Notes under the pieces: model-generated
The model's input: the letters and a program-made list of their open reading frames with translations, nothing else
Databases searched by the model: none
Told to the model about the DNA's origin: nothing
Source: a bacterium
GTDB lineage: Bacteria > Patescibacteriota > Minisyncoccia > Phycocordibacterales > UBA5272
DNA length: 43,043 nucleotides
Assembly (NCBI GenBank): GCA_031386485.1
Contig: JANNCJ010000048.1
Span: 1-43,043 of the forward strand
Direction of reading: 5' to 3'
Part shown: in pieces, positions 24,704 to 40,063 of the stretch
Numbering within the stretch: the first letter of the stretch is position 1
How the letters are laid out: each line of letters begins with the position of its first letter
Translations under genes and position numbers: made by a program

Positions 24704-24920
24704 ATGCTATTTCGCTAGTAAATAACTCTGGGCTCACAATCTTCGAGAGATTATCAAGAATATTCTGTTCATCTTCGTAGTAGAGCGAGAGAGCTTCATT
24801 CAGATTCTCAATTGCCTCGTTTTTGGTTAAACCAAAAGACGAGATGCTGTTTGTAAGCGACTTAGAAACATAAAAGCCTCCCTCTTTCCAGACAATATTT
24901 ACACTATTTAACTTCTTCAT
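24696..24920 (-). CDS. HicB-like antitoxin (UPF0150 fold)
   Basis: VWKEGGFYVSKSL...GLTKNEAIENLNEAL pattern. Start placed at MKKLNS. Confidence 0.65.
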   Translation of the reverse strand: MKKLNSVNIVWKEGGFYVSKSLTNSISSFGLTKNEAIENLNEALSLYYEDEQNILDNLSKIVSPELFTSEIAYA

Positions 24921-24950
24921 ATTTATATGATACCACAAAATAATTAATTC

Positions 24951-25571: not shown

Positions 25572-25712
25572 ATTATTATTATTAGACTATAATTATACCA
25601 TACTTGACCTTCGGGTTTCTTTTTAGAGAAATCTAAAAAGTTAATAAAAAGTCTATGCAAGAAAATCTTGCATATACTTTTTAAGTTTTATATATTCACT
25701 TTATTCTACTGT

Positions 25713-26627
25713 TCACATTTGATACTTGACTCTTCTCACATCGAAAATGCGCACTTGAGAAGTGATTGCAAAATTAACGATGCTAGAATCTTTATTTTTA
25801 AGTTTTATAATCAATTCATGTATATTCTTGTCTTTCTTTTGCACAGAGCTAAGCGGCACACCTATAAAAGTAAATTTATTTATCTTTTTTAATATGACTA
25901 CAGGCCTTAAAAAACTTTCACCTTTACCGTCTTGTTCATGGCCAATATTCACACCCATCTCTAACCACCAAACCTCTCTTTCGCTAAAATAAAAATCTTC
26001 TACGTCGTTATCTGTTCGTATTGAGGATATTTTTTTAAGATTATTCCACGCATCAAAATTTTTGTTTTTATAATTTGATATAGAAATGTATTCTTTTATA
26101 AAGTATATGTGAGTTTTAAGATTAAGAAGAGTGTTTATATTTAATTCAATTTTGCTAAGCTTGGAATACTGCTCGCTAAGATTGAGCAGGGCTTCTTTAG
26201 CCGTTAGCCACATAATTTCGCCTTCCACCATATCACCCTTTATTTCTTCTACAAACTCACAAAGAATACAAATTACTTCGTATTTTTTATACTGACCTTC
26301 TTTGTCGACGTCCTTGAATGCAATGACTTTACCAATGCTTCCAACTATCCGAATATCAATTCCCAATTCTTCCCTAACTTCTCTTTTGATGCACTCTTCT
26401 AGACTCTCATCAGACTCTAGACCTCCGCCAGGCAACAAAGTATTTTTCATCTTGATCAAGGCAATCTTACCCTGATTTATAATTATAGCTTTAACCGTTC
26501 TCCTTTCTTTATATACCTCATCATTCACCGCTACGGCAAACTTAGGCACCACATTATCAGGTCTCAGCACTTTAATCAACTTAACATCATCTTTATCCAT
26601 ATCTAAATTATACCATGAAACATTCAA
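25713..26627 (-). CDS. NUDIX hydrolase fused to a C-terminal MazF/PemK-like domain
   Basis: Perfect Nudix box GGLESDESLEECIKREVREELGI. The C-terminal EVWWLEMGVNIGHEQDGKGESFLRPVVIL...GVPLSS...SQVRIFDVRR resembles PemK/MazF toxins. Confidence 0.65.
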   Translation of the reverse strand: MNVSWYNLDMDKDDVKLIKVLRPDNVVPKFAVAVNDEVYKERRTVKAIIINQGKIALIKMKNTLLPGGGLESDESLEECIKREVREELGIDIRIVGSIGKVIAFKDVDKEGQYKKYEVICILCEFVEEIKGDMVEGEIMWLTAKEALLNLSEQYSKLSKIELNINTLLNLKTHIYFIKEYISISNYKNKNFDAWNNLKKISSIRTDNDVEDFYFSEREVWWLEMGVNIGHEQDGKGESFLRPVVILKKINKFTFIGVPLSSVQKKDKNIHELIIKLKNKDSSIVNFAITSQVRIFDVRRVKYQM

Positions 26628-26668
26628 ATATTACTTCTGTATTTTGTTTTCGTTTTAATTTTACATAC

Positions 26669-26697
26669 AAAAAACCTTTATTGCGTAAAGGTTTTTT
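26669..26697. terminator. bidirectional intrinsic terminator after secY
   Basis: aaaaaaccttta-ttgcg-taaaggtttttt: a 12-bp stem whose A/T runs supply a U-tract on either strand. Confidence 0.75.
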
Positions 26698-26717
26698 GTT
26701 TTGTGTTTGGTTTGGGA

Positions 26718-27980
26718 TTAATACTCCCTCATTGTCAGCTGAGCGTCGATCTTTTTCATAAGATCAATAATTACAGATATAGCAATTAGGAGCGATGTGC
26801 CACCAACTGATAGAGCTTGGACTCCGGTTAAGCCAGATAATATAATCGGAAGTAGCGCGACTGTGCCGAGGAATATGGCTCCCACTGTTGTTGTTCTCAT
26901 CAGCACATTACTAATATACTCAGTTGTTGCTTCGCCTGGTCTGTGCCCGGGTACAAAAGCGCCTGATTTTTGTAAATTTTCTGAAGTCTTAACTGGGTCA
27001 AAAGTAACCATCGTATAAAAGAATGTAAACATTACTATAAGAGCAAAATAAATTACTCCATATATCCAGCTATTGCCGATTATCATGGCTATCTTCTGGG
27101 CTATCAGTTGTAATGTGGCTGAGTCTGAGCTCTGCATGAGCTGGGCTGCCATCTGAGGAAAGGTCATGAGTGAGACAGCAAAAATAATAGGTATTACTCC
27201 CGCTAAGGTAAGGCGGAGCGGTAAGTATGATGTGGTCAGGCCTGTTGTCGTATACCCTCTTGATTGCTTAGCGTAAGTCACTTCTATCGGCCTCTCGGCC
27301 TCAGTCACTGCAACGATGCCCATTAGAACCAATATAAATGTTATAAATAGTGCTATATACATTGGAATTTGCGATGGGTCCACAGTGCCCATTATTGACC
27401 AGAGCTTAGCAGGGAGAGTTGCAACTATTCCTGAGAATATTATCAAAGAAATGCCGTTGCCGATACCCTTTTCATTAATTACTTCACCGAGCCACATCAT
27501 AAGCATTGACCCTGCAGTAATTATAATTATGTTTGTGGTAAACTCTGTCTTAGTCATGGCCTCTATCACACCCTGCTTAACAAAGAGCGTGAGGAGACCA
27601 ATTGCCTGTAGCACTGCAAGTGGTGGCGTCAACCATCTTGTATACTTGGCATACTTACGTCTACCAATCTCACCCTCTTCTTGCTGCATCTCTTTTAGCT
27701 TAGGGTAGAGCACAGCTACTAGCTGCATTATAATACTCGCAGTAATATATGGCTGTACTCCAAGCATAACAAATGACATTGAGGATAAGCCCCCACCCGA
27801 GAATATATTAAGCATGCCGAGGAATTGATTATCGCTTACAAATGAAGCTAGGTCCTTGCCGCTTACAGAAGGTATCGGTACTATAGATAGTATTCTAGTA
27901 ATTAATAATATTGCGAGCACAAAAAAGATTCTATTTCTTATGGCTGCATCAAGCATCACAGATTTTAAGTATTTAAACAT
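26718..27980 (-). CDS. secY: preprotein translocase subunit SecY
   Basis: 10-TM profile; LGVQPYITASIIMQL, GEVINEKGIGNGISLIIF. Confidence 0.95.
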   Translation of the reverse strand: MFKYLKSVMLDAAIRNRIFFVLAILLITRILSIVPIPSVSGKDLASFVSDNQFLGMLNIFSGGGLSSMSFVMLGVQPYITASIIMQLVAVLYPKLKEMQQEEGEIGRRKYAKYTRWLTPPLAVLQAIGLLTLFVKQGVIEAMTKTEFTTNIIIITAGSMLMMWLGEVINEKGIGNGISLIIFSGIVATLPAKLWSIMGTVDPSQIPMYIALFITFILVLMGIVAVTEAERPIEVTYAKQSRGYTTTGLTTSYLPLRLTLAGVIPIIFAVSLMTFPQMAAQLMQSSDSATLQLIAQKIAMIIGNSWIYGVIYFALIVMFTFFYTMVTFDPVKTSENLQKSGAFVPGHRPGEATTEYISNVLMRTTTVGAIFLGTVALLPIILSGLTGVQALSVGGTSLLIAISVIIDLMKKIDAQLTMREY

Positions 27981-28216
27981 ATATGCAATTATATCATAAA
28001 ATTAATCAAATAAAAACAGTCAAACTGAAGGGCTTGACGGCTTTTAGATATACAGTATTTTACCTTTACTTTAACGTAAAGTGGAAACAGAAAGCCAAGC
28101 GCCAAGGCGGATGAACAATATCTGTATTATCCTAAAAATTAATATTCAGATAAATACTGCATATCTATAGTTATTATACTATATAAATTAAAAGATGCCA
28201 ATTATGATATAAAGTA

Positions 28217-28954
28217 TTATTTTTTTAAGCTCTCGTAAATCTCTACAAATCTGTTAATGCTGCTGGTAATAATAATATAGTCTTTGTTATAATACCCATA
28301 TACAAAAGCTCCACTCTCTCCATCAGCAACTCTCATATTAATATTCTTTATACTAACATCATTAAAAGTGCTTAAATTAAAATACTTAAATTTATTCTTG
28401 GCTAAGCCTTTAAAGACATTTTCGTCTTCTAATATTGCTTGGTACAAATTGTCAAAATTACTAATGCGAATTACGATAGAGTCGTCTGTGGATGTGGCCT
28501 CGCTAGTGTAGCTAAAAAGCTTCTTACTTATGGGGTCATTCCAGACGTCTAGCACAGTATACTTTGGAGCTTCTACTTTTACTTCTTCTATTATGACTGG
28601 CTTTTTATAAACTAAGAAATAGTAAGCTGCAGCCCCGCATATAAGAAGCAAAAAGATTGCTAATCCGGCTATTACTATTAAGCGTTTTCTCTTTATAACA
28701 TTATCAGCTTCGAATGTGTTGCCGCTGGTATCCATTTGACCGCTTAAGATCTTAATCTTATTAATATTGTCTTTACGAATATTATCATAGACATCGCTCT
28801 CCATAGTATGTATCACTGGTATATCTCCTGACTTTTTGGTCAGCATGTGCAGCCTTTCTTCTTCCCTCTTTTCTTGCTCTAACTTCTCTTCGAGGCTAGG
28901 CTCTTCACCAATTGTAGCGTCATTAATATTTATAATTTTATCTTTATTGTCCAT
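28217..28954 (-). CDS. hypothetical single-pass membrane protein
   Basis: Acidic N-terminus, TM helix LIVIAGLAIFLLLICGAAAYYFLVY. Overlaps the NYN gene by 11 nt. Confidence 0.5.
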   Translation of the reverse strand: MDNKDKIININDATIGEEPSLEEKLEQEKREEERLHMLTKKSGDIPVIHTMESDVYDNIRKDNINKIKILSGQMDTSGNTFEADNVIKRKRLIVIAGLAIFLLLICGAAAYYFLVYKKPVIIEEVKVEAPKYTVLDVWNDPISKKLFSYTSEATSTDDSIVIRISNFDNLYQAILEDENVFKGLAKNKFKYFNLSTFNDVSIKNINMRVADGESGAFVYGYYNKDYIIITSSINRFVEIYESLKK

Positions 28955-29522
28955 TTTCTAATTCTACTACATTTACAGATTTTTTGTAAGGTCTTTTTGC
29001 AGGTTTACGGGTTAACTTACTTATTAATAGATATTTCTTAGGGTCGTCATCAAGGTCAAGGAAGGCTTCAGTGCTCTCCTTAAGCTTACTAGACGTCGAC
29101 CTACCAAATGAAACTACTTCAACTTGTACTCCTAGACTTTTAAGCTGCTCAACGAGCGGCACGAAGTCACCATCTCCGGTAGCTAAGACTATAGTGTCCA
29201 CTTTACTTGCAAGTCTAAGAGCGTCAACTGTGATGCCAACATCCCAGTCTGCTTTTTTGTTACCACCATGAAATATCTGCAGGTCTTTACTCTTCGTTTC
29301 TATCCCCATTTTTAAAAGAGCGTCGAAAAACTGAGCCTCGTCCTGAGCTTCTGTTGTTATGAGATAGGCTATTGCTCTTACTAACTTTCTTTCTCCTACT
29401 GCGGAGTCGAGTACGTTGCTAAAATTGACTCTTGAGTTATAGATGTTACGTGCACTGTGATATAGATTTTGCGTATCTATTAAGACCGCCACTCTTTGTG
29501 AGGTATGTTGTATTACTGACAT
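28944..29522 (-). CDS. NYN-domain (LabA/DUF88-like) protein
   Basis: VAVLIDTQNLYHSARN ... DWDVGITVDAL ... IVLATGDGDFVPLVEQLK acidic-residue pattern of NYN ribonuclease-like domains. Confidence 0.8.
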   Translation of the reverse strand: MSVIQHTSQRVAVLIDTQNLYHSARNIYNSRVNFSNVLDSAVGERKLVRAIAYLITTEAQDEAQFFDALLKMGIETKSKDLQIFHGGNKKADWDVGITVDALRLASKVDTIVLATGDGDFVPLVEQLKSLGVQVEVVSFGRSTSSKLKESTEAFLDLDDDPKKYLLISKLTRKPAKRPYKKSVNVVELENGQ

Positions 29523-29718
29523 ATTTTAAATTTGAATTATTTGAATTAATATTTAAACTTGATTAATAAAATAATTATTTTATATTAATTAATCACCTAT
29601 ATATTATATTACTTTGCTCGCATAATAGCAAATCTTAGCCTGCTCCCCCACGGAGTTATACCCAAATAAAATACCCATATTCACATGAGCATTTTATCTT
29701 TGAGCGTTTCGATTACCC

Positions 29719-29985
29719 TTATGCCTTAAGTCCAACCTTTTTAGATATGTCTTTAAGTCTCTTGGTAGACTGTCTGCCTATATATTTGAGATGTGATCTG
29801 CGATCTGAGACCATCTTGATGAGGCCGCGGCGTGAGTGATTATCTTTCTTGTGTGTTTTAAGATGGCTTGTGAGCTCTTCTATACGTCTCGAAAGAATAC
29901 CGACCTGAACTTCTGGTGATCCAGTATCTTCGCCGTGAAGCTGTACATTCTTGATAACGTTTAATTTTTTCCTTGTGGTTAACAT
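29719..29985 (-). CDS. rpsO: 30S ribosomal protein S15
   Basis: GSPEVQVGILSRRIEELTSHLKTHKKDNHSRRGL signature. Confidence 0.95.
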   Translation of the reverse strand: MLTTRKKLNVIKNVQLHGEDTGSPEVQVGILSRRIEELTSHLKTHKKDNHSRRGLIKMVSDRRSHLKYIGRQSTKRLKDISKKVGLKA

Positions 29986-30046
29986 GGCTGTATTATAACA
30001 TAATCTTAGCTCTTACGCAAGTCGTAATTAGCCTTATGTAGTAAGC

Positions 30047-31093
30047 TTATTTTACATAATTCACCTCTCTTTCTAGCTTAATACCAGTCTCTTTATAAAC
30101 TTTATCAATAATTTTTTGTGAAAATTTATCCATTTCTTCTGCGTCAGCCTTTTCATAATTCACCAAGATCAGTGGCTGCTTTTCGTAGGTGCCGACATTA
30201 CCCTCTCTTACTCCCTTCATCTTGGCTATATGCTCTATCAGCCACGCAGCTGAGGTTTTGTATTTATCTTCATATTTATAAATAGGAATATTTGTATACT
30301 TTGCGACTAGGCTCTCTTTTAAATCTTTGCTAATAAGAGGATTTTTAAAAAATGAGCCTGCATTTGGGAGTAAATTATAGTCTGGGATTTTGGATTTTCT
30401 TGTTTCTATTATTATATTTCTGATTTCTCTTACATTATATGTTTTATTTTTGTCTAAAATATTTAATGGTGCATAGGTGAGGGTTGGTTTATACTGCTTA
30501 GATAATTTGATATTAATACTGAGAATTATATATTTATCTGATTCAGTAGAATCACCTACTGGGTTAGACTTTTTGAAAATTGAATCTCGATAAGAGAATT
30601 CGCATTCTTTATTCTCTAATATCTCTATTTGATTACTTTCTCTATTTAAAACTTCTACGCTCACAAGAGTGTCGCATATCTCTACCCCATATGCTCCGAT
30701 ATTCTGCACTGGCCCGGCGCCTACGGCGCCGGGCACCCATGACAAATTCTCTATTCCCCACCACCCTCTCTCTACTGTATACTTGACCACGTCGTCCCAG
30801 GTCTCACCAGCATAAGCTTTAATAATAACGCCTTCTTCTCCCTCATCCTGCACCGTCTGGTGCGGGACTATTTCTATACCTTTCATTTCAATTTTTACCA
30901 CAAGTAATTCCTTAATATTATTAGAAAAGAAAGAATTGGTACCCTGCCCTAAAATAAAAATCTTTTTATTATTTATTTTAATATACTCCAATACGTCAAG
31001 TAACTCCTCAGTGCTAGCGACTCTCACCATCACACACTCCCCGCCCACCCTAAGCGAAGTGTAATCCCTCATGCTCACTTGCTCAATTTTCAT
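30047..31093 (-). CDS. murB: UDP-N-acetylenolpyruvoylglucosamine reductase
   Basis: FAD-binding N-terminal domain (LRVGG, GQGTN), VPGAVGAGPVQNIGAYG, and C-terminal NAGSFFKNP. Confidence 0.9.
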   Translation of the reverse strand: MKIEQVSMRDYTSLRVGGECVMVRVASTEELLDVLEYIKINNKKIFILGQGTNSFFSNNIKELLVVKIEMKGIEIVPHQTVQDEGEEGVIIKAYAGETWDDVVKYTVERGWWGIENLSWVPGAVGAGPVQNIGAYGVEICDTLVSVEVLNRESNQIEILENKECEFSYRDSIFKKSNPVGDSTESDKYIILSINIKLSKQYKPTLTYAPLNILDKNKTYNVREIRNIIIETRKSKIPDYNLLPNAGSFFKNPLISKDLKESLVAKYTNIPIYKYEDKYKTSAAWLIEHIAKMKGVREGNVGTYEKQPLILVNYEKADAEEMDKFSQKIIDKVYKETGIKLEREVNYVK

Positions 31094-31222
31094 AAACTAA
31101 TTATAGCATAAGCTGAGATGTGTAGCGAAAACAAATTTTTCTCTACGCTTCTCCAAATAGTACCAATTTATAAGGTTATTTTGGAGAGTAATTTAATATA
31201 ATACAAAACATTCACCATTTAC

Positions 31223-31873
31223 CTAATCTTCAACATTTAACCCAAGCAATGAAGCAAGATAGATAGCTTGTCCAGTGTTTACAGTTAAGCTTGTATAAGA
31301 TTCTTTATCTATGGCTATGCCCTCTATCTGAGAGCCCCTAAAGCTTACATTTTTAAATGACGTTTGAGAGAACTGTGTATTTTTTAAAATACAATTTTCA
31401 AAAGTGACATTTTCTAAACTTGACCCTAGAAAATCAGCATCCGAGAGATCACATTCTGAGAAATGAACATTTTTTAACTTTCCAAATCTAAATGAAACAT
31501 CTGCACATTTTGAAGTTTGTACCGATACATCTTTCACTGTAGCATCTCCAAACTGTGTCCCTTGTAATCTGCATTTAGAAAAAGTGCAACGTAAAAAATA
31601 GCTTTTTGAAAAAACTGTCCCAGTTAGATTAATGTTATCAAAGCTAACATCTGACGAGCTAATCTCACCCACTTTTGAAAGTTGAAAAGATATTTTATTG
31701 ATGACACTTTCATTAATTTTAATTTCAAGATAAGTCCCGCCTTCAAAAATTCCATAATTCACAATAGCGTTATCAATTTCAAAAGAATTTGAATCTTCTT
31801 TTGATTCTTCTAAAGCAATCTCCCTGAGATTCTTTTTATCAATAATTGGTTTTTTGATTTCCTTTAAAGCCAT
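31223..31873 (-). CDS. pentapeptide-repeat protein
   Basis: Tandem A(D/N)(L/F)xx-type repeats from about residue 70 to 185, e.g. ADVSFRFGKLKNVHFSECDLSDADFLGSSLENVTFENCIL. Confidence 0.8.
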   Translation of the reverse strand: MALKEIKKPIIDKKNLREIALEESKEDSNSFEIDNAIVNYGIFEGGTYLEIKINESVINKISFQLSKVGEISSSDVSFDNINLTGTVFSKSYFLRCTFSKCRLQGTQFGDATVKDVSVQTSKCADVSFRFGKLKNVHFSECDLSDADFLGSSLENVTFENCILKNTQFSQTSFKNVSFRGSQIEGIAIDKESYTSLTVNTGQAIYLASLLGLNVED

Positions 31874-31890
31874 AAGACATTATATCATTT

Positions 31891-31992
31891 CTAGAGTTTT
31901 CTGGCTTTAATTATCAAATAAGCGGGTTTACTCAACTCTTCATCCCACATTTCGGGAAAAGATCTGAGGTCGTATTCTTTTATGTTGCTCAT
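31891..31992 (-). CDS. possible 33-codon sORF
   Basis: MSNIKEYDLRSFPEMWDEELSKPAYLIIKARKL*. Ends 17 nt before the pentapeptide gene ATG. No other support. Confidence 0.2.
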   Translation of the reverse strand: MSNIKEYDLRSFPEMWDEELSKPAYLIIKARKL

Positions 31993-32042
31993 GGTTATAT
32001 TATATCAATTTATGTCTTAATTCAAAACCAACCCAAAATTTT

Positions 32043-32061
32043 ACACTTTCTCACCAGATAA
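32043..32061 (-). promoter_or_regulatory. partial third copy of the conserved leader core
   Basis: acactttctcaccagataa vs acacttttctcaccaataa at 493-512 (one indel, one mismatch). Confidence 0.4.
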
Positions 32062-32114
32062 GTCTTTATTTACAAAGATATTTTGCGGGCGATAAAGTTA
32101 ATAACCCAAAAAAA

Positions 32115-32660
32115 TTAACTCTTCCTAAATTCCCTCACTTTTATATTTTTATATTTAGGTATTTTAATTTTATTTTTCAATAAATAATGTATGTACCCCG
32201 CCCACAAATCCGCTATACTAACTCCATAAACCTCATCTGTTCTCGCTTCTCTAAACGATATTTTTATATTCTTTTTTTTATAAAGCCTTCTAACTTTATC
32301 AAACATTTTACCTAAATGATCTCCGGTATACACGACTGTATCGCCATTTTGTACTTCACCAAACACAAATATCGACAAATCAAAATACATTTTTTTGTCA
32401 TTTATATATTTGCTTTTATCTACATACCCGACGTTAACCCTATAGCTAACATCCCCAGCAATTTTATAAAATATTTCTTTCTGTGATTTTTTTAACGAGT
32501 TCCATTTATAGTCTTTTTTCGTTATTCCTAATTTCTCTTTTATTAAGAAGTAATCATTTTTAAGTGATATAGCGTCAGCTCCAACAATACTAACTACAAA
32601 AAACTCTGTTGAAGAATTTTCCATTGTCCCTTCGTCGCCACTTTCATCCAAAAATATCAT
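32115..32660 (-). CDS. DUF3800-like protein
   Basis: N-terminal MIFLDESGDEG motif typical of DUF3800. Start moved to this Met from the ORF-track start at 32756. Confidence 0.6.
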   Translation of the reverse strand: MIFLDESGDEGTMENSSTEFFVVSIVGADAISLKNDYFLIKEKLGITKKDYKWNSLKKSQKEIFYKIAGDVSYRVNVGYVDKSKYINDKKMYFDLSIFVFGEVQNGDTVVYTGDHLGKMFDKVRRLYKKKNIKISFREARTDEVYGVSIADLWAGYIHYLLKNKIKIPKYKNIKVREFRKS

Positions 32661-32752
32661 TTGTATATGATAACATATTTTGCTTGACTTTATGTTGAGT
32701 TTTGATATAATTAGCTTAAGGATATATTGACAAGGCTGCCCTCGGTAGCTTT

Positions 32753-32770
32753 CCACAACTTAAGTTGTGG
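32753..32770. repeat. perfect 18-bp palindrome ccacaactt|aagttgtgg
   Basis: Read directly from the sequence. Lies about 95 nt upstream of the DUF3800 ATG. Confidence 0.7.
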
Positions 32771-32830
32771 ATACGATGTATTCCTCCAATAAAATGGAAA
32801 CAAGATTGTGGTAACGCATTCCTCTGTTAC

Positions 32831-32864
32831 AAAATAAATCTCACAGCAATGTGGGATTTATTTT
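32831..32864 (-). terminator. intrinsic terminator after ATPase paralog 3
   Basis: 15-bp stem aaaataaatctcaca / tgtgggatttatttt with a 4-nt loop and a T-rich 3' arm. Confidence 0.7.
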
Positions 32865-32880
32865 TTGTTTAAAGCTGTAT

Positions 32881-34035
32881 TTAGGAAGAAGTAAGACTCT
32901 CTCTATAATTCTCTGTGGTTACTACTTTAAAAGCAATATTTAGATTTTTGTTATTTTGAATAAAGATTTTGGGGTTCTTTTTTCTTTTTATATTTCCTGT
33001 TGTGATCTCAAAAGCTTCCACCTCAGTATTCCACTTTTCTAAATAATCAATCTCTTTACCATCAACATTACGCCAAAAGTACGCCTGCTTAAAATTATTT
33101 TTGTATGAATTAGCTTTTAGCTTTTCTACTATAAAATAATTCTCAAACAATGCACCCACATCTCTCCTTGCCACTTTATGAGTACCGATATTAATCTCAC
33201 TAAAATCGTTGATTAGAGCATTCCTGATGCCAACGTCATAAAAATAGAATTTACTTTTCTTGGTGATCTCACCTCTAGCATTATTACTGTAACTTTTAAG
33301 TCTAAATATAACAAAAGACTGCATAAGTAAGTCAATGTATCTCTCTATGGTCTTGCTTGTAGTTCCTAGCTCTTGGCTTATTTTGTTTATACTGACTTCA
33401 CTGCCTAGCTGATATGCCAGGGTCTTTAATAAATTGATTAATAATTCTGGTTTTTTTAAATTATCAAATTTTAATATGTCTTTAAGTAAAAAGGAATCGG
33501 TGAGAGATTTTATTTTAATTATTTTATCTTCTACACTAATCTTTGTAACAACCTCAGGATAAGAACCAAATCGGAGAGTGTAATCAAGGTGCGACTGTGG
33601 GTCAAAGTATTGCGACTCTCTTATTTCTTTGTCAGTTAGTGGGTAGAGATTGAGTAGTATATTGCGTCCCATAAGGGGCTCGCCTATTTGCCCGGCAAGT
33701 TCAAATGAAGATGAGCCGGTTACAATAATTTGCAAATCCTTATAATTATCTATAATTAACTTTAGATTTATCCCTATATTTTTGATGTTCTGAGCTTCGT
33801 CTATAAAGAGTAAGTCGAGACCTTCGACATACTCTTTTAGTTTTTCTAATCTTTGTGAAGAGAATATCTCTTGTGCTGTTAGACTGTCTCCTATATAGAC
33901 TCTATATTTACCTTTAAAATTAGCAAGATAGCTATTAATTATAGTAGTTTTACCCACTTGTCTTGGCCCATAGACAATAAGCACTTTACCTTTTTCTATG
34001 TAATCACCTATTTTAATTTGTCTTTTTACTAGCAT
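32881..34035 (-). CDS. P-loop ATPase + wHTH + degenerate PD-(D/E)xK protein, paralog 3
   Basis: Walker A GPRQVGKTT, Walker B LFIDEAQ, wHTH SINKISQELGTTSKTIERYIDLLMQSFVI. Nuclease motif EIDYLEK...AFEITT lacks the Lys. Confidence 0.85.
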   Translation of the reverse strand: MLVKRQIKIGDYIEKGKVLIVYGPRQVGKTTIINSYLANFKGKYRVYIGDSLTAQEIFSSQRLEKLKEYVEGLDLLFIDEAQNIKNIGINLKLIIDNYKDLQIIVTGSSSFELAGQIGEPLMGRNILLNLYPLTDKEIRESQYFDPQSHLDYTLRFGSYPEVVTKISVEDKIIKIKSLTDSFLLKDILKFDNLKKPELLINLLKTLAYQLGSEVSINKISQELGTTSKTIERYIDLLMQSFVIFRLKSYSNNARGEITKKSKFYFYDVGIRNALINDFSEINIGTHKVARRDVGALFENYFIVEKLKANSYKNNFKQAYFWRNVDGKEIDYLEKWNTEVEAFEITTGNIKRKKNPKIFIQNNKNLNIAFKVVTTENYRESLTSS

Positions 34036-34054
34036 TTTACCTTTTTATTATACT

Positions 34055-34090
34055 CCAAGTACAAAAATATGTCAATATTCTTGTACTTGT
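34055..34090. promoter_or_regulatory. 16-bp imperfect inverted repeat (14/16) with 4-nt loop
   Basis: ccaagtacaaaaatat-gtca-atattcttgtacttgt, starting 20 nt upstream of the paralog 3 ATG. A further gtacaag follows at 34092-34098. Confidence 0.6.
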
Positions 34091-34109
34091 GGTACAAGAA
34101 GAAAGAGTT

Positions 34110-34802
34110 TTACGAGTAAAAATCAAAATCAAAGATTCTTTTTGGTGTTTTATACTGCATTCCTTTATTTTTGAATAGCCATACAATCTCTTCTGTCATA
34201 AAACCTCTTGTGCTAAATTCTTCATAGAGAAGGCAAAGGGTTTTGTAAATTGATGCCGGCATTCTATCTAAATAAAGTCTTCTTTTATTGCTTAGTTCAT
34301 ATTTTTTAAGCAGAACCACGAGTCTTTCTAAAATATCTTTTCTTTCTGGCTCGACCTCTCCTGCTTCTATCATTTTATTTGGGTTTCTGAAATCTTGTTT
34401 AAAACTTCGAGAAAAGTTAAGGCGAAGATTATTAAATGCTCTTCTTGTACTTTCTCTTATTTTGCCATCTTCTTCTTCAATATTTTTAAAATAAAATTCA
34501 AGCAATAATACAAAGCTATCAGCGGACACAAACAACAAACCCTTCGTAACAATACTAAGAAAATATAACTTGTTATCTTTACTCATCTCACCATAATCAT
34601 CTAAATATTTAAGTAAAAAATGATGTTTGACTATATCATGATTTGAATAGTGTATATTCTTATGAGCGAGTAAATTTGCTATCTCATCCTTAAGTATTTT
34701 CTTTTTTAGAATATCTCTCTCAGTGAGAAGTGCTGTCATTATTTTTTGCACCTCATAATCAGCTTCTTCTATTTGCTGCTTGGTTAATTTTTCTCTTTTC
34801 AT
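34110..34802 (-). CDS. orphan protein (230 aa, predicted helical)
   Basis: Long ORF 12 nt downstream of ORF 34815-35642. No recognisable motifs. Confidence 0.55.
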   Translation of the reverse strand: MKREKLTKQQIEEADYEVQKIMTALLTERDILKKKILKDEIANLLAHKNIHYSNHDIVKHHFLLKYLDDYGEMSKDNKLYFLSIVTKGLLFVSADSFVLLLEFYFKNIEEEDGKIRESTRRAFNNLRLNFSRSFKQDFRNPNKMIEAGEVEPERKDILERLVVLLKKYELSNKRRLYLDRMPASIYKTLCLLYEEFSTRGFMTEEIVWLFKNKGMQYKTPKRIFDFDFYS

Positions 34803-34814
34803 ATTTTAATTTTA

Positions 34815-35642
34815 TCATAAAGACTTTGCAGCAATTTTACTCATGTCTACCATAAAATAATAACCCTTCTCGTCCTTTTCGAATATATATTTTCTTTTCT
34901 TACCTTCAGCCTCACTTTTTACTTTTTCTACTGCACTTCCAAATTTTTCCTTTAAGAACTCGTAATAGAGTAATGTTCTTTGATACATTTTATTTTCGGT
35001 TGTAGATTTGCTACTTGAAACTATGTTTAATATAAAGTGTCTGATTTTGTCCATTGGCCCACTGTCTCTTTTAAGTATATATACTAACTCATCAAAATCT
35101 TTATCTAAATAAAACTGTTTAGATTCGCCTCCTTTCGTAATCGTAACGAATTCTTTTGCAAATTCTACTTTAAGTCCATCCACACCTTCCACTGATTCAC
35201 CAACCAATTTAGAGTATTCAGATTTTAGCAATCCAGAAAATTTCTCGTATTCACCTATGCTATATCTTGCGTCTGTGCCACCTACTTCAACTCTAGCATT
35301 CGGATGTAGTCTTGCAAATTCTAAAAAGGCATTTTCTGTTCTCGTGCCGAACTCTTTTTGCTCATCTTCATGTAAGCCTAATAAAGGTGTCACGTGTCTC
35401 TCCCCTTTTAATCCAAAGCCAAAATTATACGTCCCAGTCATATTCTTTAACTCTTCAAAAAATAAACTGCACTCGAATCTTCCTAATTGTCCTAGTTTGA
35501 AGCTGCTTTTATATACTGTTAATCCATTAACATTAGCAACTTCAAATTTGGTCTCTACGACTGCTGCTCTAACATTATCAAGTAGATTAAAACTTGGAAC
35601 ACTATTGCTTGTTGCTGGTTGAGGAGAAAAATTACCATCCAT
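34815..35642 (-). CDS. orphan protein (275 aa)
   Basis: Long ORF with TATAAT and a short GC hairpin just upstream. No recognisable motifs. Confidence 0.55.
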   Translation of the reverse strand: MDGNFSPQPATSNSVPSFNLLDNVRAAVVETKFEVANVNGLTVYKSSFKLGQLGRFECSLFFEELKNMTGTYNFGFGLKGERHVTPLLGLHEDEQKEFGTRTENAFLEFARLHPNARVEVGGTDARYSIGEYEKFSGLLKSEYSKLVGESVEGVDGLKVEFAKEFVTITKGGESKQFYLDKDFDELVYILKRDSGPMDKIRHFILNIVSSSKSTTENKMYQRTLLYYEFLKEKFGSAVEKVKSEAEGKKRKYIFEKDEKGYYFMVDMSKIAAKSL

Positions 35643-35645
35643 ATT

Positions 35646-35677
35646 GCTTGTGTCCCGTCGAACGGGATATTATAATT
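35646..35677 (+). repeat. minimal remnant of the GC-rich sORF/hairpin element
   Basis: gcttgtgtcccgt-cgaa-cgggatattataatt shares both flanks with 6690-6746 (gctgtgtcccgt...gggatttataatt). Confidence 0.5.
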
Positions 35678-35750
35678 AAGTATAGCATAAATAATACTAC
35701 GCTACATAATCAAAACTAAATCAAATTTCGCTTTTTTCAAGACTGACACA

Positions 35751-36881
35751 CTAGACATTAATACTTGGATCAATAAAATCTTCTATAGACAACACTCTGG
35801 TAGCTGACTCTGGGTATAACTTTAAAAACTGCTTAAAAGATACATCTTCCTTTTTCCATTTGCATTCAGTCGCTACTATTTTATCATTTTTATGTTCGAT
35901 AAAATCAATCTCTAGCTTTGTGTCAGTTCTCCAGAAATAAACTTTGCTTGGGAGATTTTCTAAGTTCGATTTTTTAAGTATTTCAAGAAACACAAAATTT
36001 TCAAACAGCGCTCCTTTATCTTTTCTATTTTCAACCAAGTCAAAGTTGTCGACTATGGCATTCCTGATTCCCAGGTCAAGAAAAAATATTTTAAAAGACT
36101 TTTTCAGTTCATTCCTTCCATTTCTAGAGTAAGATCCAATTTTTTTAATTATGTATGCTTGCTCTAAAAGTTTTAGATATTTCTGTACACTGTCACGGCT
36201 TATGCCTACTGCTTGGGCGATTTCATTTATAGAGACTATTTGACCTATTTGAAATGCTAGCATCCTAATAACATCCTCAAAGATTTGAGGATTGCGTATT
36301 GATTCATAAATATAAATATCTTTATACAAATAATTCGTGGCTATATTTTTTAAAATCTGAGTTTTGACCATTACATTACTTTCTCGCACCACTTCAGGAT
36401 ATTGGCCGCTCCTTAGCATTTCACTGATATCCTCTTTTTTTATTTCTTTACTGCCTCTAACTTCTTCTAGACTGAGTGGGTATAAAGTAAATTCAAATGA
36501 TCTCCCGGTCAGAGGCTCATTAATTTTATTTGCGAGATCAAAAGAAGATGAACCTGTGGCGATAATTTGTACATCCTTATATGTGTCGAGATAAAGTTTT
36601 AATATAGCTCCAATGTTTTGTATAGTCTGAGCTTCGTCAAGGACCACAATTTTTTTATTTTTGAACATTTGGTGAAGCGGCTTTGGGTCACCAAGAATAA
36701 AATTATTCCTAACCTCGATACTTTCACAGTTAAAATACTCCCCATCTCCACCATAATCTTTTACAAGCTTTTTAGCGAGAGTGGTTTTTCCTGCTTGCCT
36801 TGGCCCAAATACTAAAATAGCTTTACCTCTAAAAAGAAGCTCCCTAATATTTTTCTCTATTGTCCTCTCAAAAATTACCAT
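35751..36881 (-). CDS. P-loop ATPase + wHTH + PD-(D/E)xK protein, paralog 4
   Basis: Walker A GPRQAGKTT, Walker B VVLDEAQ, wHTH SINEIAQAVGISRDSVQKYLKLLEQAYII, nuclease motif EIDFIEH...ATECKW. Confidence 0.85.
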   Translation of the reverse strand: MVIFERTIEKNIRELLFRGKAILVFGPRQAGKTTLAKKLVKDYGGDGEYFNCESIEVRNNFILGDPKPLHQMFKNKKIVVLDEAQTIQNIGAILKLYLDTYKDVQIIATGSSSFDLANKINEPLTGRSFEFTLYPLSLEEVRGSKEIKKEDISEMLRSGQYPEVVRESNVMVKTQILKNIATNYLYKDIYIYESIRNPQIFEDVIRMLAFQIGQIVSINEIAQAVGISRDSVQKYLKLLEQAYIIKKIGSYSRNGRNELKKSFKIFFLDLGIRNAIVDNFDLVENRKDKGALFENFVFLEILKKSNLENLPSKVYFWRTDTKLEIDFIEHKNDKIVATECKWKKEDVSFKQFLKLYPESATRVLSIEDFIDPSINV

Positions 36882-36893
36882 ATCTACTATTAT

Positions 36894-36923
36894 AGACTAT
36901 TGCGGAAAAAAACGCAATAGTCT
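36894..36923. promoter_or_regulatory. perfect 11-bp inverted repeat agactattgcg-N8-cgcaatagtct
   Basis: Starts 13 nt upstream of the paralog 4 ATG. Confidence 0.7.
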
Positions 36924-37003
36924 GTTTTTCTTATTATAACCTTATAATGTAAGGCTTAAAAATAGGGTAAATTTTTAATTATTAACTCATTAAAATAACG
37001 AAA

Positions 37004-37150
37004 ATGAAATGTCTCTCTTGTTTGGTTTTAGTTTTGCTGTGTCTTCTTAGCGCGTGCACCGCGCAGTCCTGCACCGTATGGTGCGGGACGAAGTGGTGTG
37101 CCGTCGTGGAGGATGTTAGAACTAAGTTTAGCATAAAGTGTCATGGGTAA
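37004..37150 (+). CDS. possible 48-codon Cys-rich prelipoprotein-like sORF (alternatively a GC-rich structured element)
   Basis: MKCLSCLVLVLLCLLSAC|TAQSCTVWCGTKWCAVVEDVRTKFSIKCHG*. Lipobox LSAC. No clear Shine-Dalgarno. Overlaps two strong GC hairpins (37050-37064, 37066-37089). Confidence 0.35.
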   Translation: MKCLSCLVLVLLCLLSACTAQSCTVWCGTKWCAVVEDVRTKFSIKCHG

Positions 37151-37212
37151 TTTATCTACGTTACTTAAACACTAAATGAAGAAATCTATGAAGTTTTTAG
37201 CGGATTTAAAAA

Positions 37213-38355
37213 TTATCTGAAACCAAAGATATCTTTATAATTTACGCAGTATTCTGGCATACTAATAACTTTTGTTTTTGCTTTGCTATAGAGAGCCAGG
37301 AATTTGTTAAAAACAACTTCCTGGTTACTCCACTTACATTCATAAGCTTTTATCTCCTCATTTTTATTCAAAACAAAATCTACTTCTATCTGTTCTTTTG
37401 TTCTCCAGAAATATATTTTTGTTGCCCAGAAGTCCAGCGACTCTCTTTTTAGAAGCTCCATAAAAATATAATTTTCAAAAAGAAAACCTTTATCTGCTCT
37501 ATCTTCTACTAGGCCAAAAGAATCAATGACAGCGTTACGAACGCCAAGATCAATAAAATATATTTTAAATGATTTTTTTAATTCGTTACGCTGATTTGTA
37601 TTAAACGAATTTACTCTTTTGATAACATATGACTGTTCTAATAGTCTTAAATACTTGTCTACGGTAAGCCTACTTATTCCAAGAGTTTTAGATAATTCAT
37701 TTACAGAAACCATTTGACCTATTTGATGTGCGAGGAGCTTGAGTAAATTTTCAAAAATTGTGGGATTTTTAATATTTTCAAAAATATAAATATCTTTGTA
37801 CAGATAATTAGTCGTTATGTTACGAAGTATGTTTATTGCTAAATCTTTATCGTTTTCTGCTACCACACTCGGATAATTACCTAACCTTAATAGTTCAAAA
37901 AATTTATCTTTTGTTGGTGTCGTAAGCTCTATCTCTTCTGTAGAAAGTGGGTATAAAGTGAATTCAAATGACCTTCCTGTTAGCGGCTCATTGATTTTAT
38001 TTGCCAGATCAAAAGAAGATGATCCTGTGGCTATTATTTGCACATCTTTATATGTGTCTATAAAAACTTTTAAAATAAAACCTATATTCATTACTGTCTG
38101 AGCTTCGTCTAAAACTACAATTTTCTTATTGCCTATTAAATTTTTAAGAAGCTCGGGCCTACCCTCTTGCATTGCAGACCTGACGTCCATCAGCTCACAG
38201 TTAAGATAAAGACCTTTTTCTCCGTATTCTTCTACAATCTTTTTAGCAAGAGTGGTTTTGCCTGCCTGCCTTGGGCCAAAAATTAAAATTGCCTTCCCCT
38301 TAAACAGTAGTGGTTTTATTCTGTCTTCGAGTTTCCTTTTAAATATTTTTTTCAT
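37213..38355 (-). CDS. P-loop ATPase + wHTH + PD-(D/E)xK protein, paralog 5 (tandem duplicate of paralog 4)
   Basis: A 39-aa block DTYKDVQIIATGSSSFDLANKINEPLTGRSFEFTLYPLS is identical to paralog 4. Nuclease motif EVDFVLN...AYECKW. Confidence 0.85.
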   Translation of the reverse strand: MKKIFKRKLEDRIKPLLFKGKAILIFGPRQAGKTTLAKKIVEEYGEKGLYLNCELMDVRSAMQEGRPELLKNLIGNKKIVVLDEAQTVMNIGFILKVFIDTYKDVQIIATGSSSFDLANKINEPLTGRSFEFTLYPLSTEEIELTTPTKDKFFELLRLGNYPSVVAENDKDLAINILRNITTNYLYKDIYIFENIKNPTIFENLLKLLAHQIGQMVSVNELSKTLGISRLTVDKYLRLLEQSYVIKRVNSFNTNQRNELKKSFKIYFIDLGVRNAVIDSFGLVEDRADKGFLFENYIFMELLKRESLDFWATKIYFWRTKEQIEVDFVLNKNEEIKAYECKWSNQEVVFNKFLALYSKAKTKVISMPEYCVNYKDIFGFR

Positions 38356-38555
38356 GGTTTGAGTTTATGTAAACAGGTCTAATATTACTATTATAACTTT
38401 TTGCTCAGAAAAAAGCAAATGTTTGAAACAGATAATATATCCTTATCTTACAAGGGTATATCAGTAAACCATTTTCCATAAATTGCCTGAAATTACTTAA
38501 TTAACACGGAAGAAGCAAAAGCGCTTTGTTCTGATTTTTAATGCTTGTAAAGTTA

Positions 38556-39197
38556 TTAGATTGTATTCAGCTCAATGACGCTCTCTAGCTCAAGCACAGA
38601 CTCAGTAATTGCTATCAGATTCTCGCTCTTACTATTTTTAAAATCATCCTTGTTATGCACTCCCCAGGTTACTGCGATAGTTTTTATACCCACTTCTTTC
38701 GCCTCCCTTACGTCCCCAAGAGAGTCAGTGATAAACAAGACATCATCTTTGCTAGTCCCATATTTTTCTTGAATAAGCTTAAACTTTTCTGTTTTATTTT
38801 TTGAAATCTCTGAAGTCCCAATAAAATCAAAAAATCTTGCTATTTTAGCTTTATGTAAAATTGGAACAGTATCATCATTAGACGCTGAGGTGTTGAGAAT
38901 TAAAATATACCCCTTCTTTTTAAGGTTTTCTAATAGATTAATAACTCCTGGAAAAATTAAGGCGTTTAACTTTTTCTCTGAATACAACTTTCTACGAATG
39001 ATCTTTTCATCTTCTGATTCCTTTCTTTGGGGGTAAGCAAGTCTGGCTTTGACAAGTGCTTCGTGAAAATTCTCATTGTGCATATCTTTAAAATAATCCT
39101 CTGTCATCCCTGGAAAAAGTCTTAATACCTCATCTCTAGCAAGATTCAAAGAATCTACAATAACACCGTCCATATCAAAAATAATAATTTTTTTCAT
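38556..39197 (-). CDS. HAD-superfamily hydrolase (phosphatase-like)
   Basis: Motif I IIFDMDGVIVDS, motif II LNTSAS, motif IV FITDSLGD. Confidence 0.85.
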   Translation of the reverse strand: MKKIIIFDMDGVIVDSLNLARDEVLRLFPGMTEDYFKDMHNENFHEALVKARLAYPQRKESEDEKIIRRKLYSEKKLNALIFPGVINLLENLKKKGYILILNTSASNDDTVPILHKAKIARFFDFIGTSEISKNKTEKFKLIQEKYGTSKDDVLFITDSLGDVREAKEVGIKTIAVTWGVHNKDDFKNSKSENLIAITESVLELESVIELNTI

Positions 39198-39251
39198 AAT
39201 TAAACTCTAACACAAAATAATAAATTTCCACAATCTTCATTTAAAATTCTT

Positions 39252-39545
39252 CTAGGCTTTTATTGTTCTCAAATACTGCTTGGTGCTCTGCCGCTTCTTA
39301 ACCTGCCTTTTAGTATTAGGCCCCACTTCAACCATTTTAGTCAACTGACTAAAATGGTTTTCTGCAATCTGGCCAGCATTCACAGCCGATTTTATGGCAC
39401 GAGCAACCACATCATCAAATGCTTGCCACGTTGAATATCCAAACAAAGGAAACATCTCTCTGGCGGACCAAAACTCAACACCATTTTCATCAATGTGTTT
39501 TATGTCTTCAAATCTTTTATTTGGTCCTGTTGTAGATAATTCCAT
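39252..39545 (-). CDS. DinD-like protein, N-terminal domain only (97 aa)
   Basis: FEDIKHIDENGVEFWSAREMFPLFGY...ENHF...MVEVGPNTKR parallels the N-terminus of DNA-damage-inducible protein D, which is normally about 270 aa. Confidence 0.6.
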   Translation of the reverse strand: MELSTTGPNKRFEDIKHIDENGVEFWSAREMFPLFGYSTWQAFDDVVARAIKSAVNAGQIAENHFSQLTKMVEVGPNTKRQVKKRQSTKQYLRTIKA

Positions 39546-39551
39546 AAAATA

Positions 39552-39923
39552 TTACTTACCCGAAAATATTGTTTTTGAATCAACAAAACACAAAGGGTTT
39601 TCAAAAGGATCATTAAAGTAAAAGGATTTTTCGCCCCATGGCTGGGTTTCAATCTCCGAAAGATTCTCTACATTTAGTATTTTAGCTCGTTTAAAAACAT
39701 CTTCTAACTCATCTGTTGAAATATAAATATATTCAGGATTTGGTTTTGAAATTAATTCATCTCCATCAGCGAGCGCGTCAAAGCAAGCAAAAGTAGTTCC
39801 GTCACAATCAAAATAGTGACGCCCAGGTGAGACTCTTGTCCCTTCAAAACCAAATAAGGTTTCATAGAAATTCTGGGCAGCCGAAATATTTGAAACTGGA
39901 ACTATAATACGAAATATTTTCAT
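39552..39923 (-). CDS. VOC/glyoxalase-family protein
   Basis: MKIFRIIVPVSNISAAQNFYETLFGFEG beta-alpha-beta-beta-beta start. The ORF-track start at 39941 is a non-ATG codon, so the Met at 39923 is preferred. Confidence 0.7.
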   Translation of the reverse strand: MKIFRIIVPVSNISAAQNFYETLFGFEGTRVSPGRHYFDCDGTTFACFDALADGDELISKPNPEYIYISTDELEDVFKRAKILNVENLSEIETQPWGEKSFYFNDPFENPLCFVDSKTIFSGK

Positions 39924-39990
39924 AAACATATTATACAACAACTTCAGCTAATCACAAAAGCCTGAACATTGTTCATGATTTTGTTACTTG

Positions 39991-40063
39991 TGTGGCTACC
40001 GGGATTTGAACCCGGGCTGAGAGTTCCACAAACTCTAGTGCTAACCGCTACACTATAGCCACC
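39991..40063 (-). tRNA. tRNA-His (GUG) with encoded G-1
   Basis: g-gtggcta...tagccac-a, anticodon loop ttgtgga, T-loop ttcaaat. The discriminator reads A. CCA is not encoded. Confidence 0.85.

Follow-up and report, generated by a model that had tools for sequence, protein, structure and literature searches.

The window analyzed here, a stretch of 43,043 nt from a Patescibacteria-type genome of ~0.75 Mb (742 kb), contains five open reading frames (ORFs) within the 5,475 nt from position 32881 to position 38355, all of them on the minus strand. Three encode proteins of the COG1373 (PDC-S01) family, namely, paralog 5 (380 amino acids [aa]; 37213..38355), paralog 4 (376 aa; 35751..36881), and paralog 3 (384 aa; 32881..34035). 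The other two, a 275-aa orphan gene (P0001; 34815..35642) and a 230-aa orphan gene (P0003; 34110..34802), lie between paralogs 4 and 3 and are separated from each other by 12 nt, so that the layout given in the original prediction was recovered in full. Profile matches also upheld the identities proposed for the flanking minus-strand genes, i.e., a HAD phosphatase (38556-39197; HAD_2, E 1e-21) and an N-terminal DinD fragment (39252-39545; NCBIfam PRK11525, E 4.7e-23, model positions 10-85 of 288) on one side and a DUF3800 gene (32115-32756; 28.4 bits against a cut-off of 21) and a pentapeptide-repeat gene (31223-31873) on the other.

The segment is bounded by tRNA-His and a glyoxalase gene at one end and by murB at the other. 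Its GC3 is 0.23-0.29 (0.38 in the DinD-like fragment), lower than the 0.34-0.40 of the housekeeping flanks. None of the 12 other species of the genus has COG1373, which is present in 12 of 96 genomes of the family. Moreover, in a second strain (strain B), the allele of the 275-aa gene has been exchanged and the pentapeptide-repeat gene carries a nonsense codon. Because the GC3 lies below that of the flanks, the distribution of COG1373 is patchy, and the strains differ within the segment, these results support the first part of the original prediction, that this is an accessory, conflict-flavored island; its further parts, growth of the ATPase family by duplication and a role of the orphans as cargo or effectors, were not supported. 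Integration at the tRNA was not borne out, as no repeat of tRNA-His (39991-40062) longer than 13 nt was found in 25000-39970, no integrase domain was detected with Pfam in the island ORFs scanned, and the lower GC3 was the sole island mark in that comparison. The neighbors of murB were not conserved across five genomes of the same genus.

Paralogs 3, 4, and 5 each matched AAA_14 (E 1e-24 to 1e-29) and DUF4143 (E 1e-35 to 1e-41) above the Pfam gathering cut-offs, and each gave a full-length match to the PADLOC model PDLC04789 (PDC-S01; E 3e-123, 6e-127, and 9e-128), covering ~370 of 375 model positions. Paralog 5 combines an AAA_14 ATPase, a wHTH, and a DUF4143 nuclease-like domain, and the Walker A (GxxxxGKT), Walker B (DE), and TGSS motifs were present in all nine COG1373 copies of the genome. 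In domains, model coverage, and these motifs, the three paralogs are thus like PDC-S01 at large, in which AAA_14 is joined to DUF4143, a domain of the PD-(D/E)xK superfamily; the E-x-K motif is likewise retained as E-C-K in paralogs 4 and 5. Paralog 3, 38% identical to paralog 4, differs in reading E-I-T and is probably nuclease-inactive because the lysine of the motif has been replaced. The patchy distribution, the multiple copies, and the single-gene units also agree with what has been described for the family (PMC12988326, PMC3424549), whereas the extreme load of nine copies in 742 kb sets this genome apart. PDC-S01 is enriched in defense islands and was put forward as a "guilt-by-embedding" candidate (PMC12988326), PADLOC treats it as a single-gene candidate, and one representative failed to protect Escherichia coli B from T7, T5, or T4 (bioRxiv 10.1101/2024.09.26.614923). 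An antiphage role of PDC-S01 is therefore that of a candidate, negative in the one test found.

Paralogs 5 and 4 had been taken for tandem duplicates on the strength of an identical 39-aa block, an overall identity of about 60%, and a local nucleotide identity near 85%. The measurements themselves were reproduced, in that the two proteins are 59% identical over 367 aa, share the block DTYKDVQIIATGSSSFDLANKINEPLTGRSFEFTLYPLS, and have a nucleotide identity of 0.80-0.90 within it. Nevertheless, to call them tandem duplicates is misleading, since the proportion of synonymous differences (pS) between them is 0.70 overall, i.e., synonymous sites are saturated, and ~40 proteins of other Patescibacteria ranked nearer to paralog 4 than paralog 5 does. 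Within the identical block, pS is still 0.42-0.55, and therefore, the block is kept by purifying selection and not by recent duplication or conversion. In a phylogenetic tree, paralog 4 grouped with five outside proteins (SH-aLRT 99), and this group fell inside a clade with 18 outside proteins from which paralog 5 was excluded; the other seven genomic copies occupied long separate branches. Paralogs 4 and 5 are thus not sisters and the remaining copies are very distant, which contradicts the proposed expansion by duplication. The nearest outside homologues of paralog 4 are solitary genes amid housekeeping genes.

A different palindrome precedes each of the three ATPase genes, just upstream of the start codon. 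That of paralog 5 (candidate operator and promoter, 38386..38425, minus strand; TTTGCT-N8-AGCAAA, direct repeat family D4) was found by a palindrome scan just before a TATAAT, and that of paralog 4 (candidate operator and promoter, 36885..36924, minus strand; AGACTATTGCG-N8-CGCAATAGTCT) runs into a TATAAT located 12 nt before the start codon. In the control region of paralog 3 (34047..34100, minus strand), the palindrome TTCTTGTAC-N5-GTACAAGAA (34078-34100) abuts a perfect TTGACA-17-TATAAT (34075-34047), a sigma-70 promoter with a 12/12 consensus match. The same scan revealed exact-arm palindromes upstream of eight of the nine genomic COG1373 copies; those of paralogs 3, 4, and 5 may presumably each be bound by the wHTH of the respective ATPase. 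One of the upstream palindromes (C7) resembles a terminator of the preceding gene. Downstream of paralog 3, a hairpin with a 15-bp stem flanked by A and T runs (32831..32864) forms a bidirectional terminator-like site. The nearer outside homologues, the pS of 0.70, the solitary homologues, the separate palindromes, the promoter of paralog 3, and the nine copies here versus none in 12 congeners together show that the ATPase genes are independent of one another, apparently as stand-alone cassettes grouped within one variable island. The three genes would have arrived separately or be very old.

A GC-rich element lies at one of the junctions and a weak match to it at another. Between paralogs 5 and 4 (36990..37180), the element has a hairpin core at ~37059-37096, which occurs in five copies in the genome and has a consensus fold with compensatory changes. 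The spacer that separates paralog 4 from the 275-aa gene (35643..35750, minus strand) contains what may be a decayed 5' part of the element, an extended -10-like site, TGCTATACT, recognized by eye, and the hairpin CCCGT-TCG-ACGGG; no T-tract terminator was found there by a terminator scan. The original prediction had placed copies of the element at both junctions, one of them decayed. The supposed decayed copy in the spacer amounts to no more than a weak match (42 nt, 78.6% identity, 35650-35691 versus 37096-37137, E ~1e-3 by blastn). The matching segments lie at comparable distances downstream, ~60 nt past the stop codon of paralog 4 and ~76 nt past that of paralog 5.

These results bear directly on the proposal that the orphans are cargo or effectors tied to the flanking ATPases, the whole being one multigene defense or selfish system expanding through local duplication. 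All of the genes share one strand and are closely spaced, no terminator was detected in the spacer upstream of the 275-aa gene, paralog 3, directly downstream, lacks the nuclease lysine and could serve as a regulatory partner, and PDC-S01 is a family enriched in defense islands (PMC12988326). However, no other genome carries the orphans, whereas at least 7933 COG1373 relatives do without them, the closest homologues of paralog 4 are solitary, each of the three ATPase genes has its own palindrome, with a perfect promoter in the case of paralog 3, paralogs 4 and 5 do not pair as sisters and the remaining copies lie very far off, and the family is listed by PADLOC as a single gene. We thus found no evidence in support of the cargo proposal and regard it as quite improbable. 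Co-occurrence of the orphans with COG1373 across genomes cannot be shown, because one species alone carries the orphans. Co-transcription of the two orphans, or read-through from paralog 4, is putative.

The orphans had been described as having no recognizable domains, and this was confirmed. Domain searches of both proteins against Pfam, PHROGs, PADLOC, and NCBIfam, up to E = 10, returned nothing, nor did a sequence search of the PDB. Relatives were sought among 5.8-15 billion proteins. A word-indexed search of 5.8e9 proteins recovered a second allele of the 275-aa gene (allele B) as the sole relative, and HMMER over 1.84e9 cluster representatives recovered the same allele plus one tandem-repeat artifact. 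The latter, P0004, was dismissed as a homologue, being the translation of a perfect tandem repeat with 19 weak stretches. Neither orphan was found in 95 genomes of the same family, in JGI metagenome, GTDB, or IMG/VR contigs, or in phage genomes, and no further copy was found within the genome itself. Both are true orphans, restricted to one species.

In AlphaFold2 (AF2) models, the 230-aa protein was all-helical (pLDDT 49) and the 275-aa protein (pLDDT 54) was confident at residues ~140-200 only; the fold search that had been suggested, run with Foldseek on the latter model (pLDDT 54) against the PDB, gave no match at E <= 0.001. By eye, the 275-aa protein contains no signal peptide or transmembrane segment, and for this reason, its interpretation as a surface antigen lacks support. 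Descent from a degenerate COG1373 nuclease-like domain was rejected for the 275-aa protein (hhalign probability 0.85%, E 0.065, catalytic positions unconserved), and the 230-aa protein gave nothing against the profile of that domain. The 275-aa gene did not match Methylase_S, the domain expected in a type I restriction-modification (R-M) HsdS, or any other Pfam or NCBIfam model at E <=10, and its neighbors are not methylase or restriction genes. As a pair, the orphans matched no toxin-antitoxin or defense system in PADLOC, Pfam, PHROGs, NCBIfam, or the PDB.

When the contig of strain B was aligned over 16.2 kb, 317 differences were counted, of which 286 fell in 34750-35750. Outside the 275-aa gene there were 31 single-nucleotide polymorphisms (SNPs), with none in the 230-aa gene, which is identical in both strains, and none in paralog 4. 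A further 7.4 kb of strain B was 99.93% identical, so that over ~23 kb outside the allele swap, the two strains are 99.8-99.9% identical. Allele A and allele B, in contrast, share 54% amino-acid identity, with a near-identical N-terminal 37 aa and C-terminal tail. The first ~110 nt of the gene are constant and the divergent tract (34823-35530) reaches to within ~6 nt of the stop codon. In the divergent core, pS is 0.66 (saturated), pN is 0.34, and dN/dS is ~0.28, and the alleles differ by indels of 9, 6, 3, and 12 nt, all in frame; an ORF antisense to the gene is lost in allele B. A third sample contained exactly allele A. No silent cassette for allele B was found in the assembled genome. Just two alleles are known, drawn from two or three metagenomes, and the same two-sequence picture would result from one neutral import out of an unsampled lineage. 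Judged from the allele comparison, the 275-aa gene is genuinely protein-coding and under coding constraint.

We considered the possibility that the strain B contig is a chimera, in which a gene of a different organism was spliced into the backbone, since metagenome unitig and contig assemblers may take either branch of a bubble. Such a bubble requires identical k-mers on both sides, however, and allele B indeed matches this locus exactly over the first ~110 nt and again downstream; because both flanks are identical as the bubble requires, the genome carrying allele B must have the same locus. Together with the lack of any other homologue of the 275-aa gene in the databases searched, this renders an assembly artifact very improbable. 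Patescibacteria often carry diversity-generating retroelements, and the genome has one reverse-transcriptase gene (C42:1364-1975), so that targeted hypermutation by such an element, or by something similar, might also be invoked. Yet every type of substitution is represented among the differences between the alleles, along with four indels, saturation of synonymous sites extends over ~700 nt, the assembled genome has no template-repeat copy of the gene, and the sole reverse transcriptase is on another contig. We give this explanation almost no credence, and the substitution spectrum together with the indels in effect rules out the 275-aa gene as a retroelement target.

A less easily dismissed alternative is that the orphan pair is a neutral or decaying remnant of mobile-element or phage DNA with no host function, the allele difference stemming from a single unselected import from an unsampled related lineage. 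The restriction of the genes to one species, their position within an island of low GC3, next to a phage-like Bro-N/DinD fragment and other decaying genes, including the pentapeptide-repeat gene with its nonsense codon in strain B, and the fact that two alleles only are known all fit this account. Against it, both alleles are open over 271-275 codons despite ~35% nucleotide divergence and four in-frame indels, at a dN/dS of ~0.28, and since the frames are kept, the indels are in frame, and this ratio is low, the protein has been under long-standing purifying selection. Moreover, the divergent tract does not extend beyond a single gene, its 3' end falling at the stop codon, and by our own estimate, a 230-codon open frame would arise by chance at ~30% GC with a probability of ~5e-9 per frame. 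We therefore consider the remnant account unlikely.

The reading that we favor, with somewhat more confidence than doubt, is that the segment is a patchwork island of independent modules in which an old dimorphism of the 275-aa gene, probably a component of a conflict or recognition function, is swapped by recombination. Under this reading, the segment would be an accessory patchwork and not a single system, and the 275-aa gene would be kept as at least two ancient alleles, exchanged between near-identical genomes by homologous recombination that may be anchored in the constant first ~110 nt and in the invariant downstream 230-aa gene. Long-term balancing (negative frequency-dependent) selection would best explain so sharp a dimorphism confined to one gene. 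The 275-aa protein might then be the component that recognizes, or is targeted, in a conflict or interaction with phage, host, or competitor, with the invariant helical 230-aa protein as its putative constant partner. We infer the selection regime, as well as any partnership of the orphans and any role in defense; balancing selection in particular is read from the pattern of two alleles and not from population frequencies. More specifically, and as a tentative proposal that we hold to be doubtful, the pair could form a new two-part system for conflict or recognition in ultra-small episymbiotic bacteria. The 275-aa protein would then act as its polymorphic subunit for specificity or sensing, or else be what a phage or host factor targets; its alleles would be under negative frequency-dependent selection and shuffled via the constant ends, and the helical protein would be an effector or scaffold.

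Polymorphic loci with constant ends under balancing selection include the target-recognition domains of type I R-M HsdS, the central domains of flagellin, and the comQXP and agr pherotype loci. The 275-aa gene resembles them in its alleles with saturated synonymous divergence, its near-identical genomic backgrounds, its sharp boundaries, its conserved ends able to anchor recombination, and its invariant putative partner gene. It differs in that no sequence or fold relation to those families was found, in being known from two alleles only, and in the lack (by eye) of an export signal. That near-clonal strains should carry two ancient alleles of one orphan gene is both new and unexpected. Ancient alleles in near-clonal genomes usually mark molecules at the phage-host or cell-cell front line, and two genes with two alleles offer a small, concrete target for learning what such organisms fight over. 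The view of a system with cargo, attractive but unsupported, is replaced by a testable picture of apparently stand-alone cassettes. Although the genomes of Patescibacteria are minimal, this one devotes ~1.4% of its DNA to the nine copies of a candidate defense gene. DUF3800 is present in the same genome in a further 8 or 9 copies.

The window is contig C9 of a 742-kb genome of 105 contigs that is 91% complete, and homologues of its genes found by protein search carried the source names "Patescibacteria group," "Candidatus Staskawiczbacteria," and "Paceibacterota"; both the genome size and these names indicate a member of the Candidate Phyla Radiation. All genes considered here lie on the minus strand. 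In transcription order, a HAD phosphatase gene (38556-39197) comes first, followed by the ATPase genes paralog 5 (380 aa; 37213-38355) and paralog 4 (376 aa; 35751-36881), two orphan ORFs of 275 aa (34815-35642) and 230 aa (34110-34802) with a 12-nt gap between them, and the ATPase gene paralog 3 (384 aa; 32881-34035). A GC-rich element (approximately 36990-37180) separates paralogs 5 and 4, and a terminator-like hairpin (32831-32864) follows paralog 3, ahead of a DUF3800 gene (32115-32756) and a Qnr/HalA-like pentapeptide-repeat gene (31223-31873). Paralogs 3, 4, and 5 encode full-length AAA_14 plus DUF4143 proteins according to Pfam and matched the PADLOC PDC-S01 model (E values of about 1e-123 to 1e-128); the lysine of the E-x-K motif was missing from paralog 3 alone (E-I-T). 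DUF4143 belongs to the PD-(D/E)xK superfamily and is of unknown function (PMC3424549). PDC-S01 is a very common, unvalidated single-gene candidate (PMC12988326), one representative of which gave Escherichia coli B no protection against T7, T5, or T4 (bioRxiv 10.1101/2024.09.26.614923). The accessory, defense-like setting ascribed to the cluster in the original prediction was supported. Three PDC-S01 genes, DUF3800, the Qnr/HalA-like pentapeptide protein, and a phage-like DinD/Bro-N fragment, all conflict-type genes, share the island. Stand-alone DUF3800 genes make up another multi-copy family, the second in the 742-kb genome (eight matches above the Pfam cut-off and one below); one copy lies about 1.3 kb from a COG1373 gene on contig C85, and of the two on contig C65, one closely follows a GC-rich hairpin copy.

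The genome contains nine copies of the COG1373 ATPase family, four on other contigs and five in the window, where the two further copies lie at 7292-8464 and 12665-13858. The resemblance first described between paralogs 5 and 4 was accurate (59% identity, an identical block of 39 aa, and local nucleotide identity of about 85%); the proposal that the family is expanding by local duplication was not supported. Synonymous sites between the two genes are saturated (pS = 0.70), and pS still reached 0.42 to 0.55 within the identical 39-aa block, indicating that selection, rather than a recent duplication or conversion event, maintains the block. Among 5.8e9 proteins searched, about 40 from other organisms were 60 to 74% identical to paralog 4, and paralog 5 ranked only about 42nd among its relatives. 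The nearest outside homologues (proteins P0011 and P0008) are encoded by solitary genes amid housekeeping genes. In a maximum-likelihood tree, paralog 4 and five outside proteins formed one group (SH-aLRT, 99), nested in a clade with 18 outside proteins from which paralog 5 was excluded, and the remaining seven genomic copies sat on long, separate branches. The outside rows of this tree were picked by similarity to paralog 4, a sampling bias that leaves intact the conclusion that both paralog 4 and paralog 5 have nearer relatives than their neighbor. The ATPase family was not found in any of the 12 congeneric species, compared with nine copies here. Across the taxonomic family, just 12 of 96 genomes carried it, and expansions to nine, seven, and five copies were scattered among them.

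Neither orphan matched any model in Pfam, PHROGs, PADLOC, or NCBIfam at E values up to 10 or any PDB sequence, and no relatives of either were found in 95 same-family genomes, in JGI metagenome, GTDB genome, or IMG/VR contigs, or among 50,697 phage genomes. The only true relative, recovered from a word-indexed set of 5.8e9 proteins and by HMMER (an exhaustive scan of 1.84e9 cluster representatives), was P0002 (271 aa), which shares 54% identity with the 275-aa ORF. AlphaFold2 models were weak (pLDDT of 54 for the 275-aa protein and 49 for the 230-aa protein), and the alignments behind them were shallow because the orphans lack homologues. The 230-aa protein was predicted to be all-helical and the 275-aa protein to combine a disordered N terminus with an alpha/beta body; a Foldseek comparison of the 275-aa model with the PDB yielded no match (E <= 0.001). 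The original prediction had also cast the pair as cargo or effectors of the ATPase family that encloses them. Such a functional tie found no support. The ATPase family turns up thousands of times without the orphans, and the proposed co-occurrence comparison comes down to the single species (n = 1) from which the orphans are known. The enclosure looks instead like co-location within an insertion-prone island. Weak homology in blastn between 35650-35691 and 37096-37137, together with a 40-mer common to the upstream regions of paralogs 4 and 5 (the direct-repeat family D4), suggests that the two ATPase units formerly had similar flanks. It also suggests that the 3' flank of paralog 4 now ends abruptly 8 nt ahead of the ATG of the orphan pair, which begins at this break, an arrangement consistent with insertion beside a cassette.

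P0002 does not come from another species; it is encoded at this very locus in a second strain, represented by a Logan contig of SRR20217181 (strain B) whose gene order is identical to that of the window between the T2SSE and sigma-factor genes. Over 16.2 kb of alignment, 286 of the 317 differing columns fell within 34750-35750. Outside the 275-aa gene (about 15.3 kb) there were only 31 SNPs, with none in paralog 4 or the 230-aa gene, and a second SRR20217181 contig was 99.93% identical across a further 7.4 kb that includes paralog 1, another copy of the ATPase gene. A third sample, SRR20217212, carried exactly the window's allele (allele A). The first approximately 110 nt of the 275-aa gene are identical in allele A and the strain B version (allele B); past this constant start, divergence climbs to about 40% and lasts until a few bases before the stop codon. 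All four indels between the alleles (9, 6, 3, and 12 nt) are in frame, core codons gave a pS of 0.66 (saturated; dS of about 1.6) and a pN of 0.34 (dN/dS of about 0.28), and allele B disrupts the 121-codon antisense ORF present in allele A. Together, these features indicated that the 275-aa ORF truly encodes a protein and is subject to purifying selection. The divergence likewise indicated that both alleles predate the genomes carrying them by a wide margin, and this dimorphism of the orphan is the new element here. Assembly chimerism was rejected as the source of the pattern, as the flanks of allele B exactly match the locus. Hypermutation of the retroelement type was also rejected, as was cassette conversion by a silent copy within the assembly, given that all substitution types and indels are represented and that the genome has no second copy. 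The genome's single reverse-transcriptase (RVT_1) gene lies at C42:1364-1975, within a 333-codon open frame.

The constant 5' segment and the invariant downstream gene, which bound the divergent tract, most likely serve as homology anchors through which homologous recombination between lineages would exchange the core of the 275-aa gene. Ancient alleles restricted to one gene in near-clonal backgrounds are the classical signature of balancing selection, usually negative frequency-dependent, as is known for pherotype loci, for specificity subunits, and for proteins that act as sensors or at the surface. Because no export signal was seen by eye in the 275-aa protein and the island holds conflict-type genes, we favor, at low confidence, a model in which this protein would act in the cytoplasm within a conflict function, as its recognition component or as a component that is targeted, and would have the invariant 230-aa protein as partner; co-translation or co-transcription of the two is suggested by the 12-nt spacing. 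The main rival, that the pair is a functionless lineage-specific remnant that by chance received one foreign tract, draws on there being only two known alleles but is weakened by the preserved open frame and low dN/dS. The description itself, of independent ATPase cassettes, true orphans, and ancient swapped alleles, is likely to be correct.

The strains differed elsewhere as well. A C-to-A change at window position 31608 converts Ser88 to a stop in strain B, which breaks its copy of the pentapeptide-repeat gene; the window's copy is intact. Strain B lacks a 375-nt segment (24578-24952) containing a HicB-like/truncated HicA remnant and about 100 nt of a NUDIX-fusion gene (25693-25794; 276 versus 304 aa), and the map/sigma-factor stretch (23615-24577) was 95.1% identical between strains compared with 99.8% elsewhere. 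The missing segments and the 95.1% stretch show that recombination or indels have made the two strains mosaic at these places too.

The GC-rich element between paralogs 5 and 4 contains a hairpin of about 45 nt (CCCACUwCGUCCnGYACCAUACGGURCAGGACUwCGCGGG) present in five copies in the genome (window 37059-37096 and 6698-6735; C65:878-924; C59:1570-1607; C11:2565-2600), with compensatory C-G/U-A changes in its inner stem and no Rfam match at the gathering threshold. Since extended ORFs surround only the 37-kb copy, the hairpin looks like a repeated structured element and not a small ORF. At that copy, a 48-codon plus-strand ORF (37004-37150) has several Cys residues and a signal resembling that of a lipoprotein (...LLSAC...); the C11 copy lies about 55 to 70 nt after another COG1373 gene. 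A palindrome scan found exact-arm palindromes, all different, upstream of eight of the nine COG1373 copies. These are candidate operators private to each copy, through which each cassette would regulate itself. That of paralog 4 is AGACTATTGCG-N8-CGCAATAGTCT, continuing into TATAAT; that of paralog 5 is TTTGCT-N8-AGCAAA; and that of paralog 3 is TTCTTGTAC-N5-GTACAAGAA, adjoining a perfect TTGACA-17-TATAAT. Palindromes of the other copies have arms of 10 to 16 bp, except on contig C7, where a 9-bp GC-rich hairpin looks like the terminator of the upstream gene.
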